DNA of 26,379 nucleotides from a virus, in IMG/VR virus record IMGVR_UViG_3300037076_000108. One strand, given 5' to 3'. The notes below the pieces were generated by a model that was given only the letters and a program-made list of their open reading frames with translations, was not told the DNA's origin and did no database searches. A program made the position numbers and the translations under genes. Of this stretch, positions 13,912-20,548 are shown in pieces; position 1 is the stretch's first letter, and each line of letters starts with the position of its first letter.

Positions 13912-13985
13912 TGGAGCGGAGTGCGAGACTCGAACTCGCATCTTGAGACTGGCAGTCTCAGGCACAGCCCTTATACCAACCCCGC
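13912..13985 (-). tRNA. tRNA-Gly(GCC)
   Basis: Manual fold: acceptor GCGGGGT/ACTCCGC, T-arm GCGAG-TTCGAGT-CTCGC, anticodon arm TGAGA-CTGCCAG-TCTCA (anticodon GCC). 74 nt with encoded CCA. Confidence 0.7.
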
Positions 13986-14000
13986 AAAGGGAATAAATTT

Positions 14001-14074
14001 TGGAGCGGACGGCGGGACTCGAACCCGCATCTCAAGATTGGAAATCTTGGGCACAACCTTTATACCACACCCGC
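14001..14074 (-). tRNA. tRNA-Gly(UCC)
   Basis: Paralogue of the previous tRNA on the same scaffold: acceptor GCGGGTG/CGTCCGC, T-arm GCGGG-TTCGAGT-CCCGC, anticodon arm CAAGA-TTTCCAA-TCTTG (anticodon UCC). 74 nt with CCA. Confidence 0.7.
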
Positions 14075-14398
14075 CCATTTCACCGAATGTCCTTCAATAC
14101 CACACTGCATCAAATAATGAGCAGCGTTACAAACACGACAGAGCACATTGAATTTGGTTATGTCAATCTTTCGATTGGCAATATCTCGAATGTGTTGTGT
14201 ATGATGAGCAACCCGGCGCTCTGCACTGCCGCCACCATCAATATGATTTATTTCCAATGCCTCAAAAACATCACATCCACATTGACAGCAGATCGTCCCA
14301 CCAAGAACATTCATTGCTTTCCTACGAAGAGTTTGGAGGTAGTCCCGATAATAACCTTCACGAACTCCCTGCTTCTTTTCGTAGGCTTTTCTCACCAA
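14060..14398 (-). CDS. HNH endonuclease
   Basis: 112 aa. CCQCGCDVFEALEINHIDGGGS...NVLCRVCN is an HNH motif. TTG/GTG start abuts a CTAAATAG motif. The 3' end overlaps the tRNA-Gly(UCC) 5' end by about 15 nt. Confidence 0.7.
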   Translation of the reverse strand: MVRKAYEKKQGVREGYYRDYLQTLRRKAMNVLGGTICCQCGCDVFEALEINHIDGGGSAERRVAHHTQHIRDIANRKIDITKFNVLCRVCNAAHYLMQCGIEGHSVKWAGVV

Positions 14399-14403
14399 TC
14401 TAT

Positions 14404-14799
14404 TTAGGCAACGTGAAAAAGACGAAGAAGGATCAACGTCGAATTCCAGATCACCAGCAACGAAAACAGCGTATTCACGAAGCGCCAGCCCTTCTCCGTG
14501 TTGACAGACGACCGAAGAGTCATGAACCCAACAATCACCAGGACCATCAGGAGCTTTCCAACCAGTAAGCCGGAAAGCAATCCAAGCGCCGGGAAGAAAC
14601 GTGAAATGACTGGATTTGCTTCACCCAATCCACACGAAAACCCGGTCAACGTAGTCATCACGTCGAGAGCTTGCAAAAAGACAAATGCCTGAAAGCCTTT
14701 GTTCGTTGTTAGCGTTGAAACGTTAACCACGAATCCATAGTACCACACTCTGGTACCGATGTCAAGGGTTTGCTGCTTAATCTCGTTTGCGAACGCCAA
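14404..14799 (-). CDS. Multi-pass membrane protein, unknown function
   Basis: 131-aa ORF with several hydrophobic stretches (LGLLSGLLVGKLLMVLVIVGFMTL; LFSLLVIWNSTLILL). The start may be an internal Met. Confidence 0.4.
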   Translation of the reverse strand: MAFANEIKQQTLDIGTRVWYYGFVVNVSTLTTNKGFQAFVFLQALDVMTTLTGFSCGLGEANPVISRFFPALGLLSGLLVGKLLMVLVIVGFMTLRSSVNTEKGWRFVNTLFSLLVIWNSTLILLRLFHVA

Positions 14800-14971
14800 A
14801 ACGAATGATGCCCCAGAACCCGCCCCAGATCACCTTGAAGTTATGACCGTAACCCTTGCCATTGAAGAAGTTTACCACGAACGGCAACACGATCAGAAAA
14901 ATGAATGGATAAAGCAGCCACATCAAGATTCGATACAGCACCAATCCAAAACCGATGTCGAAAAAGCCCAT
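14777..14971 (-). CDS. Small membrane protein (2 TM)
   Basis: 64 aa, LVLYRILMWLLYPFIFLIVLPFVVNFF. GGGAG SD 9 nt upstream of the ATG. Confidence 0.5.
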   Translation of the reverse strand: MGFFDIGFGLVLYRILMWLLYPFIFLIVLPFVVNFFNGKGYGHNFKVIWGGFWGIIRFGVRKRD

Positions 14972-15040
14972 TTGGTTACTCCCTTACAAAACCACAATAC
15001 ATGAAGAAACCATCATATTCATTGTTACCCTTATCCGCCA

Positions 15041-15250
15041 CTACTCGAATCCGATGATTGGTCGGAGTTGTTCCAACACTTCTGTTGCCTGCTTTTTGCT
15101 ATATCTCTGAGAATGTACGGAGTAACCTTCTCCCCACCAGATGTAAAGGAACGTAGATCCGCTTCGGCAATGTGCGTTGACGCCGTAGATGGCTGAGAGA
15201 ATAGGTTCAAGCTCGGCCTCAATTCCCTTTAGTGTCGTTGTTAGTCGCAT
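15041..15250 (-). CDS. Hypothetical small protein (69 aa from internal Met of the 115-aa ORF)
   Basis: ORF only. Overlaps the alternative-frame ORF 15031-15222. Confidence 0.3.
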   Translation of the reverse strand: MRLTTTLKGIEAELEPILSAIYGVNAHCRSGSTFLYIWWGEGYSVHSQRYSKKQATEVLEQLRPIIGFE

Positions 15251-15425
15251 GTTTGTCTCTATCTTGAAAATAGAGGTCGAGTTCATCAAGCAGCACTTCT
15301 CCATTGTCGCCGTCGCCACCAGACTTCCAACAGAAGTAGTCGCTGAAGTCATGCAGATCAACTTGCTCGATAAACCTAAAAATCTCAACAGATCGAGGAT
15401 CGTGCGGGTCCATTACATTCCCCAC
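15219..15425 (-). CDS. Hypothetical acidic protein
   Basis: 68-aa ORF rich in D/E. Confidence 0.35.
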   Translation of the reverse strand: MGNVMDPHDPRSVEIFRFIEQVDLHDFSDYFCWKSGGDGDNGEVLLDELDLYFQDRDKHATNNDTKGN

Positions 15426-15649
15426 ATTTTTTTCAGAAGTGTCTTTGCCTGTTTGTCGTATTTCTTTGGGAGGTCTTCGATGGTAACACCAAGATAGGTG
15501 AACAGAGAAGACATGTATTCGTCCCTATACATCGCATCATTCATTGACCATGCAGTTATGAGAGTGAGCTTACCGTCTACCAGATCGTAGAAAGCATCGG
15601 CTTCGCCCAAATCATCATCACAAAAGGATTTCACGTAAATTGTTCGCAT
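15413..15649 (-). CDS. Hypothetical protein
   Basis: 78-aa ORF following the ArfB-like gene. Confidence 0.45.
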   Translation of the reverse strand: MRTIYVKSFCDDDLGEADAFYDLVDGKLTLITAWSMNDAMYRDEYMSSLFTYLGVTIEDLPKKYDKQAKTLLKKMWGM

Positions 15650-19178: not shown

Positions 19179-19615
19179 TAGTAGTCTTCTAAAAAGTCGT
19201 GCATGGCAAATTGGAGACGACTCATTCCACACGCCGTGGCTTCCTTGATAGCGTCGGCCTTGCTCAATTCCTTTGTGAACACACGATAACATGCCACAAA
19301 AGTGCCGGTCCTATCGCAACCTCTGCGACAATGAATGAGCCACACTCGGCCATCTTGCAGTGAAGCTACACCTTCTGCCATTTGCGCTTTGGTCGGAGCA
19401 TTGAACGGTAATTCACCAACCTGGATCGAAACAAATTCTTCGATGCCAGCCGCTAATACCGCATCGCCCTCATCTTTCAGAGAGAAGCCACCATCCTCGC
19501 CGTCTTTACGCAAGCACAATACAACTTGCACTCCAAGGGCTTTGAAAATCGGCCATGCCTCTGCATTAGGCTGGTCGGTACGATACACATGTTTGTCAAC
19601 TTGACGTAAATTCAT
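19178..19615 (-). CDS. Cys-based protein phosphatase (dual-specificity / tyrosine phosphatase, CX5R P-loop)
   Basis: 145 aa. VWLIHCRRGCDRTGTFVACY contains HCxxGxxRTG, the PTP/DSP active-site signature. ATAAATA motif 5 nt upstream of the ATG. Confidence 0.75.
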   Translation of the reverse strand: MNLRQVDKHVYRTDQPNAEAWPIFKALGVQVVLCLRKDGEDGGFSLKDEGDAVLAAGIEEFVSIQVGELPFNAPTKAQMAEGVASLQDGRVWLIHCRRGCDRTGTFVACYRVFTKELSKADAIKEATACGMSRLQFAMHDFLEDY

Positions 19616-19626
19616 AGCCGTATTTA

Positions 19627-19716
19627 TGGCAGAGGGCGAGGGGATTGAACCCCCGCTAGATTCTCACCTAGACCACCGTTTTCGAGACGGGTACCTTTCC
19701 GCTCGGTCAGCCCTCT
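19627..19716 (-). tRNA. tRNA-Ser(CGA)
   Basis: 90 nt. Acceptor AGAGGGC/GCCCTCT, T-arm GGGGG-TTCAATC-CCCTC, anticodon region CCGTCTCGAAAACGG identical to E. coli Ser(CGA), long variable arm, CCA encoded. Confidence 0.7.
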
Positions 19717-19885
19717 ATCTTTTGTTGTCGGCACAAGCATTCCTTCAATGCTTACCGCTGCTAATGCCACGCCAACAAACATAATGAACATGGCAGTGAA
19801 CAATGCTTCTGGATGCGCCGCACGTGCAAGCTGCACCATGTAAATCCAACTGCCAATGTATGCCGCCATCCTAAATTCAGGCAAT

Positions 19886-20044
19886 TTACTTCCCCTTCCA
19901 CGGCTCCCCACATTTACCACAACGATATTCTAACAAACCGTTGTCACCTTCACGTGTGCGTATGGACTTACCGCCTTTACCGCACTTAGGACACTTTGCT
20001 GTTTTCTCAGCCGTGCCCGGATACCGCCGTTCAAATTCTGTCAT
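19886..20044 (-). CDS. Zinc-ribbon mini-protein (52 aa), not in the supplied ORF track
   Basis: MTEFERRYPGTAEKTAKCPKCGKGGKSIRTREGDNGLLEYRCGKCGEPWKGK has two CxxCG pairs. The ATG overlaps the upstream stop (ATGA). Confidence 0.5.
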   Translation of the reverse strand: MTEFERRYPGTAEKTAKCPKCGKGGKSIRTREGDNGLLEYRCGKCGEPWKGK

Positions 20045-20235
20045 GTTCTCCCTGAACGTTTCTCATTCCAGACTATCCCCCGGCGTGCATGATCCGTCTG
20101 GAGATCTCTCTGTTCTTCCATCCACTGCTTTTCTGCCAACCGGATAGATTCATCTAAGTCGGCTCCACACTTACACCGAAGATTGGACTGAACAGTGTCC
20201 CATTCCATTTTGCAGTGTCGGCAATTGTATTTCAT
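20041..20235 (-). CDS. Zinc-ribbon-like small protein (64 aa)
   Basis: MKYNCRHCKMEWDTVQSNLRCKCGADLDES has CxxC...CxC. Lies directly downstream of tRNA-Ser(GGA). Confidence 0.45.
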   Translation of the reverse strand: MKYNCRHCKMEWDTVQSNLRCKCGADLDESIRLAEKQWMEEQRDLQTDHARRGIVWNEKRSGRT

Positions 20236-20241
20236 AAAATT

Positions 20242-20334
20242 TGGCGGAAGATGAGAGATTTGAACTCCCGCACGCCTTTAGAGCGTGACCGTCGCTTTCC
20301 AAGCGAGTGCAATACCGGACTCTGCCAATCTTCC
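20242..20334 (-). tRNA. tRNA-Ser(GGA)
   Basis: 93 nt, class II. Acceptor GGAAGAT/ATCTTCC, T-arm GGGAG-TTCAAAT-CTCTC, anticodon arm CTCGC-TTGGAAA-GCGAC (anticodon GGA, C:C at 27:43). CCA encoded. Confidence 0.6.
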
Positions 20335-20455
20335 GTTCTTCAACAAACGTTACACCGGGACTAACTAAAAACATAACTGGTTCCCCGTAGAGTTTTCGAT
20401 GCTCTATTCCTAGCGTGATGCCGTGTCCTACCCTTAAACGAACGGGGCAAAAATT

Positions 20456-20548
20456 TGGCGGAAGGTGAGGGATTTGAACCCCCGCAACCCTTTAGAGGTT
20501 GACCGCAGTTTAGCAAACTGGTGCAATACCGGACTCTGCCAACCTTCC
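20456..20548 (-). tRNA. tRNA-Ser(GCU)
   Basis: 93 nt paralogue of the previous tRNA: acceptor GGAAGGT/ACCTTCC, same D-arm TGGCAGAGTCCGGTATTGCA, anticodon arm CCAGT-TTGCTAA-ACTGC (anticodon GCU). Confidence 0.6.

Follow-up and report, generated by a model that had tools for sequence, protein, structure and literature searches.

How does a phage come to own several tRNA genes for one amino acid that share most of their sequence and carry different anticodons? The question is raised by a stretch of viral DNA of 26,379 nucleotides (IMG/VR record IMGVR_UViG_3300037076_000108; "the window" denotes this whole stretch), in which tRNA-Gly(GCC) neighbours tRNA-Gly(UCC) and tRNA-Ser(GGA) neighbours tRNA-Ser(GCU). 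We consider it probable that these are functional-looking isoacceptor genes of a conserved array, that each amino acid had one founder body, which was copied and re-targeted, and that the copies stayed alike outside the anticodon arm. The observations on which this reading is built are the tRNA calls, the compensated stems, the body identities, the gene order, the founder-type D-arms and one chimeric gene. The two pairs are arranged as follows:

13912-13985, minus strand: tRNA-Gly(GCC), 74 nt, encoded CCA (ARAGORN; Rfam 48.2 bits)
13986-14000, minus strand: spacer of 15 nt between the Gly genes (ARAGORN coordinates)
14001-14074, minus strand: tRNA-Gly(UCC), 74 nt, encoded CCA, upstream member of the pair (ARAGORN; Rfam 57.8 bits)
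20242-20334, minus strand: tRNA-Ser(GGA), 93 nt, class II (ARAGORN; Rfam 47.9 bits)
20335-20455, minus strand: spacer of 121 nt between the Ser genes, without significant structure
20456-20548, minus strand: tRNA-Ser(GCU), 93 nt, class II (ARAGORN; Rfam 50.0 bits)

All four genes bear the anticodons that an earlier note on this DNA had assigned to them: ARAGORN agrees, and the covariance model of Rfam (RF00005, gathering score 29 bits) accepts each of them at 47.9-57.8 bits. The spacings given there, 15 nt for the Gly pair and about 120 nt for the Ser pair, came out at 15 and 121 nt. The same holds for its count of at least 12 tRNA-type genes in about 12.5 kb (Ser four times, Leu three times, Gly twice, Pro and oddities), since ARAGORN reports 12 tRNA genes between 13912 and 26175 and a thirteenth, Ser(UGA), is cut by the window edge at 26379; the three Leu genes of that count are the class II ones. 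The Rfam tRNA model supports 11 of the 12 ARAGORN tRNAs, all four pair genes included.

Exact comparison of the Gly genes yields 15 differences over 74 nt, seven of them in the 17-nt anticodon arm and eight elsewhere (four in the acceptor, two in the D-loop, two in the T-stem). The Ser genes differ at 16 of 93 nt, with eight differences in the anticodon arm and eight outside it (acceptor two, variable arm four, T-stem two). The description of the pairs as differing almost only in the anticodon arm was thus overstated, as about half of the differences lie there (7/15 and 8/16), and what stands of it is a significant enrichment in the arm (Fisher p = 0.034 for Gly and 0.0014 for Ser; 0.025 and 0.007, in the same order, without the anticodon itself). 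The differences concentrated in the arm comprise the anticodon and positions linked to it, that is, stem pairs and nucleotides 32/38. The Gly arms differ at stem pairs 27:43 and 28:42, two of five, and at nt 32, 34 and 38, while in the Ser pair the whole anticodon stem is different. The D-arm of both Ser genes is indeed identical (TGGCAGAGTCCGGTATTGCA), and Gly(GCC) combines a D-arm of the Gly(UCC) type (GGTATAAGGGCTGTGCC) with the anticodon loop CUGCCAG.

Wherever a stem pair differs between the members of a pair, the change is double and compensatory (5/5 in Gly, 7/7 in Ser, 12/12 in total). Both members of each pair therefore look functional, and the compensated stems are the signature of two RNAs that both appear to be under structural selection. 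The anticodon loops are canonical, with U33 and a purine at position 37. The identity set of bacterial glycyl-tRNA synthetase (GlyRS) consists of G1-C72, C2-G71, U73, C35 and C36 (PMC9976931), and it is present in both Gly genes, which start with GCGGG, end with CCGC-U-CCA and have NCC anticodons. Bacterial class II tRNA-Ser is characterized by a long variable arm, G73, G1-C72 and G2-C71 and is charged independently of the anticodon (PMC9976931); Ser(GGA) and Ser(GCU) conform to this set for seryl-tRNA synthetase (SerRS) with a GGAAG acceptor, a variable-arm stem of 6 bp and G73-CCA.

The likeness of the bodies, i.e. of the tRNAs minus the 17-nt anticodon arm, was set against a background of co-resident isoacceptor pairs from unrelated viral contigs. 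Body identity amounts to 85.2% for the Gly pair and 89.0% for the Ser pair. Across all 163 background pairs the mean is 63.6% (standard deviation 8.1) and the maximum 86.4%; the 19 Gly(GCC)/Gly(UCC) pairs average 62.8% and do not exceed 71.4%, and the 65 Ser isoacceptor pairs, drawn from a second contig set, average 64.0% with a maximum of 74.3%. A cellular Gly pair, glyT and glyV of E. coli, shares 64% of its body. Constraints imposed by SerRS alone do not force the likeness of the Ser pair, since the body of a further Ser gene of the window, Ser(CGA), is only 59-64% identical to the two.

Relatives of the window phage were found among IMG/VR and JGI metagenome contigs, some of them 118-406 kb long, with the 848-aa protein encoded between the Ser and the Gly tRNAs, which has domains of Major Vault Protein (MVP), as anchor. 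This protein is 90% identical in L013, L012 and L011, 79% in L009 and 69% in L005 (= L010 = L017); a further relative, L001/L146, was located by DNA pattern, so that the family sample comprises about five related genomes. Wherever the contigs reach, L013, L009, L005 and L001/L146 share with the window the order Leu genes, Ser(GCU), Ser(GGA), Ser(CGA), gene for the MVP-like anchor protein, Gly(UCC), Gly(GCC). As relatives with the same pairs in the same order have flanking genes that are only 58-90% identical at the protein level, both pairs must predate the divergence of these phages and the underlying events are old. Local duplication followed by replacement of the anticodon arm, as the earlier note had it, therefore survives in part: each pair derives from one gene type whose anticodon or anticodon arm was changed, the change was not recent, and replacement of an arm fits Ser(GGA) only. 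As a mechanism it is also too simple, since paralogues appear to have exchanged parts in a reticulate manner.

At syntenic positions the anticodons are identical in the window, L013, L001/L146, L009 and L005, so that an isoacceptor anticodon shift defined by synteny is not seen. Judged by sequence, such a shift is seen: the bodies of Ser(GGA) and Gly(GCC) resemble genes of a different anticodon more than they resemble genes in relatives that share their anticodon (for Ser(GGA), those of L013, L009 and L005). The body of Gly(GCC) is 85% identical to Gly(UCC) of L146 and of L005 and 72-76% to its GCC orthologues. Within a genome the two Gly bodies share 85% (window), 78% (L005) or 65% (L009), and the value for UCC orthologues is 70-85%.

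Each pair appears to re-use the body of the U34 isoacceptor that is commonest in phages, Gly(UCC) in one case and Ser(UGA) in the other. A scan of IMG/VR for the D-arm motif of the Gly genes, TGGTATARNGRYTGTGCC, placed it in Gly(UCC) in 90 and in Gly(GCC) in two cases among the 120 contigs listed, and both GCC cases were relatives of the window phage. Where both Gly genes are present at other loci, the motif is missing from Gly(GCC), whose D-arm is ordinary. Joined to a GCC loop, the motif was met in five viral contigs, four of which are relatives, and in two of 185,579 species genomes, both times within dense tRNA arrays. For the Ser D-arm motif TGGCAGAGTCMGGTWT the counts were 92 for Ser(UGA), three for Ser(GCU), one for Ser(CGA) and none for Ser(GGA), and among the best 20 background bodies Ser(UGA) occupied 20 places for the window's Ser(GGA) and 17 for its Ser(GCU). 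The founder-type D-arms and bodies support copying followed by re-targeting at the level of the phage lineage; the truncated Ser(UGA) of the window itself has a D-arm unlike that of the GGA/GCU pair. The two species-genome matches lie at 3388-3461 of L144, from a 1.06-Mb plasmid of Pseudomonas serbica, and at 1342-1415 of L145, a contig of a metagenome-assembled Bacteriovoracaceae genome. Their arrays hold at least 20 tRNA genes within 8 kb, and both have the loop CUGCCAG in common with Gly(GCC) of the window.

In the proposed course of events one founder body per amino acid would have been copied within this lineage of phage arrays and the copies then given other anticodons, the Gly founder being a body of the Gly(UCC)/glyT type and the Ser founder the body which Ser(UGA) has in other phages. 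Re-targeting of this kind would work since position 34 is not read by GlyRS, and the anticodon as a whole is ignored by SerRS. For Ser(GGA) there is, in addition, direct evidence of an exchange between paralogues, by recombination or by gene conversion over a short tract, in which the anticodon arm stayed where it was or, what amounts to the same, was transplanted. This evidence begins with the comparisons of Ser(GGA) of the window with other genes:

Ser(GGA) of L001: body 97%, arm 11/17
Ser(GCU) of the window: body 89%, arm 9/17
Ser(GCU) of L013: body 88%, arm 9/17
Ser(GGA) of L013, syntenic: body 68%, arm 14/17
Ser(GGA) of L009, syntenic: body 65%, arm 16/17
Ser(GGA) of L005, syntenic: body 64%, arm 9/17

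With Ser(GCU) of the window and Ser(GGA) of L009 as parents, the maximum chi-square for a chimera is 27.6 at a permutation p of 0.001, a value whose true significance is more modest because the stem changes are paired and the independent evidence thus comes down to some three base pairs and the anticodon. The informative sites for these parents read 111111-22222222-11111111112211111111111, in which the run of eight 2s coincides exactly with the anticodon arm, and with L013 parents the test gives p = 0.011. Ser(GGA) is hence best described as a statistically supported chimera, in which a body like that of Ser(GCU) and of the Ser(UGA) type appears to be combined with an arm of the kind found in Ser(GGA) of the distant relative L009, and this points to recombination among paralogues. 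The positional orthologue in L013, the closest relative, lies in flanks that are 74-84% identical and has a gene body of only 68% identity.

Besides the limited independent evidence in the chimera test, several results weigh against a history of copied bodies and exchanged arms. Convergence of three to four stem pairs is possible, as the stems are short and about five related genomes were compared. None of the breakpoints in the Gly pair is significant (p = 0.41), and the differences between the Gly arms are so small (two stem pairs and nt 32, 34 and 38) that point mutation suffices and recombination is not needed. Conversion of the D-arm of the window's Ser(GCU) by Ser(GGA), which the other D-arm in L001 and L005 suggests, is a possibility for which the breakpoint test yields p = 0.13. 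The idea of the anticodon arm as a clean module that tracks the anticodon is not supported in this strong form, as a nearest-neighbour test across the family gives the same result for stems and for bodies: the nearest neighbour in another genome bears a matching anticodon in no more than 34 of 58 comparisons, whether bodies or stems are used. Finally, serV(GCU) and serW(GGA) of E. coli, which are unlinked, share 83.6% of their bodies and 11/17 positions of their arms. The Ser pattern therefore has a cellular precedent, and some of the likeness of Ser(GGA) and Ser(GCU) may be a general bacterial feature and not a phage event.

The alternative that survives best, which we regard as possible and yet rather unlikely, is plain divergence after an ancient tandem duplication: an anticodon point mutation followed by compensatory drift and tuning of the "extended anticodon" (positions 32/38 and stem) would have made the arms different, recombination would have had no part, and purifying selection would have kept the bodies alike. 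In its favour, within the anticodon of the Gly pair only U34 had to become G34 (the Ser pair requires more), the remaining arm differences are few and a significant breakpoint is missing. Furthermore, tRNA bodies evolve slowly here, as the Ser(GGA) bodies of the window and L001 are 97% identical within flanking DNA of about 72% identity, and changes beyond the anticodon are documented for isoacceptor shifts in eukaryotes (PMC3923123). Divergence alone has difficulty with the mosaic of Ser(GGA), whose arm is close to that of L009 and whose body is not, the reverse being true with respect to its neighbour Ser(GCU), and with the dissimilar body of the syntenic L013 gene in well-conserved flanks. 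It also does not explain why the bodies of Gly orthologues are no more alike than those of Gly paralogues compared across anticodons, nor why Pro(CGG) and Pro(UGG) of L013, whose anticodons are one base apart, have different stems on a body of 93% identity.

Isoacceptor anticodon shifts, in which a duplicated tRNA gene adopts another anticodon for the same amino acid, mostly concern position 34, frequently come with further changes elsewhere in the tRNA and are reported as nearly absent in Enterobacteriaceae (Rogers & Griffiths-Jones 2014, PMC3923123). The change between UCC and GCC in Gly at position 34 is of this type. Unlike those cases, in which syntenic orthologues have different anticodons, the window and its relatives have conserved anticodons at syntenic positions and bodies that differ, and the entire anticodon stem differs in the window Ser pair.

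For cells, such shifts and the recruitment of tRNA genes are reportedly the subject of work by Saks, Sampson and Abelson from 1998. Short-tract conversion between non-identical Ser tRNA genes in S. pombe, said to have been demonstrated experimentally by Amstutz et al. in 1985 for unlinked genes, is likewise reported to have produced mosaic genes; the window genes differ from these in being neighbours in a phage array, where one significant chimera suggests conversion. Among the cellular genes, serV and serW of E. coli K-12 resemble the window Ser pair in having the same two anticodons on a common body (their GGUGAGG acceptors are identical), with the difference that they are unlinked and do not have identical D-arms, whereas the phage genes are adjacent, 89% alike and equipped with a D-arm of the phage Ser(UGA) type. 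The locus is thus a new example of known modes of tRNA gene evolution that have rarely been described in phages, and it overturns nothing, since both shifts and conversion are known from cells.

An arms race appears improbable as the cause of the pattern. According to this explanation anticodon arms diversified to escape host anticodon nucleases (VapC, PrrC or colicin-like) and bodies were conserved for charging. Changes in the anticodon loop of phage tRNAs that block cleavage by VapC-type enzymes have been described (van den Berg et al. 2023, PMC10264068), and such tRNAs, like those of the window, are distinctive in the anticodon stem-loop. The enrichment of differences in the arm in both pairs fits as well, and so does the fact that close orthologues sometimes differ only in the anticodon stem, as Ser(CGA) of the window and L013 do. 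On the other hand, that study compares phage and host tRNAs of the same anticodon, and the contrast in the window is between paralogues with different anticodons whose arms are kept among orthologues. The arm of Ser(GCU) matches its orthologues of L013, L001 and L005 at 17/17, 15/17 and 14/17 positions, with bodies that are 96%, 82% and 77% identical in the same order, and the arm of Leu(UAG) matches its same-anticodon orthologue at 17/17; arms are thus at least as conserved as bodies, and the loops are canonical. On the same grounds we rejected, as a general rule, the view that anticodon stems are a mutational hot spot; the differences of two close orthologue pairs are confined to the stem, yet arms of same-anticodon orthologues are overall as conserved as bodies or more so.

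Very unlikely, in our view, is the independent capture of two host isoacceptor genes that were already alike in the host, without any duplication in the phage. Phages are known to acquire tRNA genes, and serV and serW demonstrate that similar bodies for Ser(GCU) and Ser(GGA) exist in cells. Against this stand the rarity of Gly(GCC) on a UCC body among the species genomes, where both instances lie in tRNA arrays resembling mobile elements, the low likeness of glyT and glyV, the background phage pairs, which never reach the Ser value, and the D-arm of the Ser pair, which is that of phage Ser(UGA). That in each pair one of the genes is a pseudogene in decay can practically be dismissed, for although degenerate tRNA-like elements do occur in the array (25500-25593, without CCA), all differing stem pairs are compensated, the Rfam scores of the four genes clearly exceed the gathering score, CCA is encoded in each of them, and their anticodons are kept at their positions in relatives.

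If founder bodies were copied and re-targeted, the phage would thereby have come to encode decoders for all four Gly and all six Ser codons. As far as can be told from the predicted genes, the decoder sets of the array are full in the case of Gly and Ser and almost full in that of Leu. In the phage genes of the window Gly is encoded by GGY in 71% and by GGR in 29% of cases, and each of the six Ser codons accounts for 14-22%; as all Gly and Ser codons are used, every member of the pairs has codons to read and may be of benefit in translation. The tRNA clusters of T4-like and jumbo phages (XacN1, PMC5852040; viral tRNA survey, PMC6409571) are likewise dense arrays interspersed with small ORFs and homing endonucleases and, like the window, contain U34-type tRNAs, among them Gly(UCC) and Pro(UGG). 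The lineage studied here differs from them in having full Ser, Leu and Gly isoacceptor sets on shared bodies.

The roles of phage tRNAs are a matter of debate, with codon compensation, the supply of tRNAs in place of degraded host ones and evasion of anticodon nucleases under discussion, and so is the origin of large sets. The locus offers a quantifiable case in which extra isoacceptors would have been made inside the array from phage founder genes and not by capture from the host, and it contains at least one gene whose body and anticodon arm appear to have different histories. Should the pattern be general, it would account for the near-complete decoder sets of jumbo and T4-like phages. The pairs are, moreover, natural tRNAs of the type "same body, different arm" that lend themselves to studying the tuning of anticodon arms.

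We put forward only tentatively the more far-reaching view that full sets were built in place from founder bodies, those of the U34-type tRNAs usual in T4-like phages, and that bodies and arms of neighbouring paralogues are continually re-assorted by short-tract gene conversion, possibly triggered by the homing endonucleases of the array, as a modular, cassette-like route to translational autonomy. If true, the repertoire would grow independently of the capture of host genes. The main reading itself is supported by the relatives, in which bodies have likewise been reshuffled among isoacceptors at fixed positions, and pairs of L013 provide even sharper cases of one body with another anticodon than the window's own. 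The genes for Pro(CGG) and Pro(UGG) of L013 (125-201 and 2061-2137) agree at only 7/17 arm positions, with entirely different stems; Leu(UAG) and Leu(CAA) of the same contig (2513-2599 and 2963-3049) have a body identity of 88% and arms that agree at 15/17 positions. Ser(GGA) of L013 (6807-6897) and Ser(CGA) of L012 (605-695) have bodies of 93% identity and the same stem, the anticodon differing at nt 34 only, and Leu(UAG) of the window is 91% identical in body to Leu(GAG) of L009 with an arm match of 7/17. A candidate trigger of gene conversion is the HNH homing-endonuclease gene of the array (25587-26069), an insertion relative to L013 and L009 that is specific to the window. Among same-anticodon pairs of window and L013 genes, the two that flank it, Leu(GAG) with 68% and Pro(UGG) with 77%, are together with Leu(CAA) the least conserved, which is compatible with such a role.

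The remaining features of the array, together with the anchor gene, are these:

16201-18747, minus strand: gene for the MVP-like protein of 848 aa (Pfam PF11978, MVP shoulder, 1.1e-19; PF17795, vault repeat, 1.1e-07)
19627-19716, minus strand: tRNA-Ser(CGA), other body, A1-U72, acceptor AGAGGGC (ARAGORN; Rfam 42.3 bits)
23473-23548, minus strand: class-I-shaped "Leu"(UAA) (ARAGORN)
23708-23786, minus strand: class-I-shaped "Leu"(CAA) (ARAGORN)
24045-24132, minus strand: Leu(CAA) (ARAGORN)
24661-24747, minus strand: Leu(UAG) (ARAGORN)
25311-25386, minus strand: Pro(UGG) (ARAGORN)
25500-25593, minus strand: odd class II "Ala"(CGC) (ARAGORN; Rfam 44.9 bits)
25587-26069, minus strand: HNH homing-endonuclease gene inside the array (PHROG 10822, 2.4e-37)
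26088-26175, minus strand: Leu(GAG) (ARAGORN)
26290-26379, minus strand: 3' part of Ser(UGA), cut by the window edge (5'-truncated match to the Rfam tRNA clan)

Ser(CGA) has A1-U72 also in its orthologues of L013, L012 and L001; for most bacterial tRNA-Ser a conserved G1-C72 has been described (PMC9976931). A single compensated pair of the anticodon stem sets the window's Ser(CGA) apart from that of L013 and is the sole difference in the entire gene. Leu(GAG) at 26088-26175 is never reported by the Rfam tRNA model, even at E <= 10 on a 330-nt stretch. It appears to have C10-G25 in place of the usual G10, and a Leu(GAG) of 68-73% identity occupies the matching array position in L009, L013 and L005. 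Several other candidates were discarded: extra calls of ARAGORN with introns and low thresholds lie inside ORFs and are obvious false positives, and weak Rfam matches to Plastid-psbl-rps4 and, at 24011-24073, to YrlA are artefacts of tRNA T-arms or adjacent tRNAs. The 121-nt Ser spacer was considered as a degenerate tRNA (GCCCCGU...ACGGGGAACCA), folds no better than shuffled sequences (z = +0.74) and is without homologue in the loci fetched from relatives.

The class-I-shaped "Leu" tRNAs form a conserved family of 76-79 nt with the anticodons UAA, CAA, CAG and GAG, A73, CCA and a variable region of only 4-6 nt. In addition to the two window members, on the minus strand at 23473-23548 and 23708-23786, it includes genes of L013 (703-781, 1982-2059, 3744-3822 and 3830-3906), L001 (8414-8490) and L009 (2239-2317). 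These genes adjoin class II Leu tRNAs of normal shape, some of which have anticodons in common with them, and in an alignment of eight sequences 11 of 20 cloverleaf pairs show compensatory changes. The long arm is reported to be dispensable for leucyl-tRNA synthetase (LeuRS) of E. coli (PMC9976931).

The "tRNA-Ala(CGC)" of 94 nt at 25500-25593 combines a long variable arm with a Leu-like D-arm, U1-A72 and A73, ends with CUA instead of CCA, contains an A31-C39 mismatch or alternatively a 9-nt loop, and overlaps the stop of the HNH ORF. A homologue was not found in the relatives. This may be a decaying gene; if LeuRS charged it, it would misread GCG codons.

Of two further elements, one is conserved and tRNA-like and the other structured. 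The former lies directly downstream of Leu(CAA) in the window (23940-24045, minus strand), L013 (3540-3648) and L001 (8597-8706), with 84-86% identity. It has an acceptor-type stem of 7 bp, D- and T-like arms, no CCA and a non-canonical "anticodon" loop of 7-8 nt (UACAUUGG or UGAUUGG), and it is not called a tRNA at standard settings. The other, of about 110 nt, is located between Ser(UGA) and Leu(GAG) in the window (26176-26290, minus strand) and in L009 (3319-3436) and consists of an acceptor-like stem of 8 bp followed by ACCA and three internal hairpins. The two copies are 82% identical with compensated pairs at 6/30, and no Rfam family matches.

The window phage is an uncultured, distant T4-like myovirus of a lineage from soil and peat metagenomes. 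All large ORFs and all tRNAs of the window are on the minus strand. The ORFs at 1423-12045 encode baseplate wedge and hub proteins of the T4 type (PHROG E-values 1e-95 to 1e-161), among which a GIY-YIG homing endonuclease gene is situated (9077-9601), so that T4-type structural genes, 12-13 tRNAs in 12.5 kb and homing endonucleases occur on the same contig. Compared with sequenced phages, the gp6-like protein is matched best, at 41% identity, by Pelagibacter phage HTVC008M. A megablast search with 13000-21000 against sequenced phages returned no match, and the window phage thus has no annotated close relative. The 255-aa ORF at 21990-22757 as query found nothing in viral contigs, and the exact pattern of Gly T-arm plus acceptor gave no match.

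The MVP-like anchor protein is without PHROG match and is kept at 36-90% identity in many viral and metagenome contigs. Small ORFs between the tRNAs, at 15671-16051, 19178-19615 and 20557-20928 on the minus strand, encode an RF-1 domain protein, a protein resembling dual-specificity/tyrosine phosphatases and a thioredoxin. The first of these proteins (PF00472, 3e-10) may be a peptidyl-tRNA hydrolase of the ArfB type.

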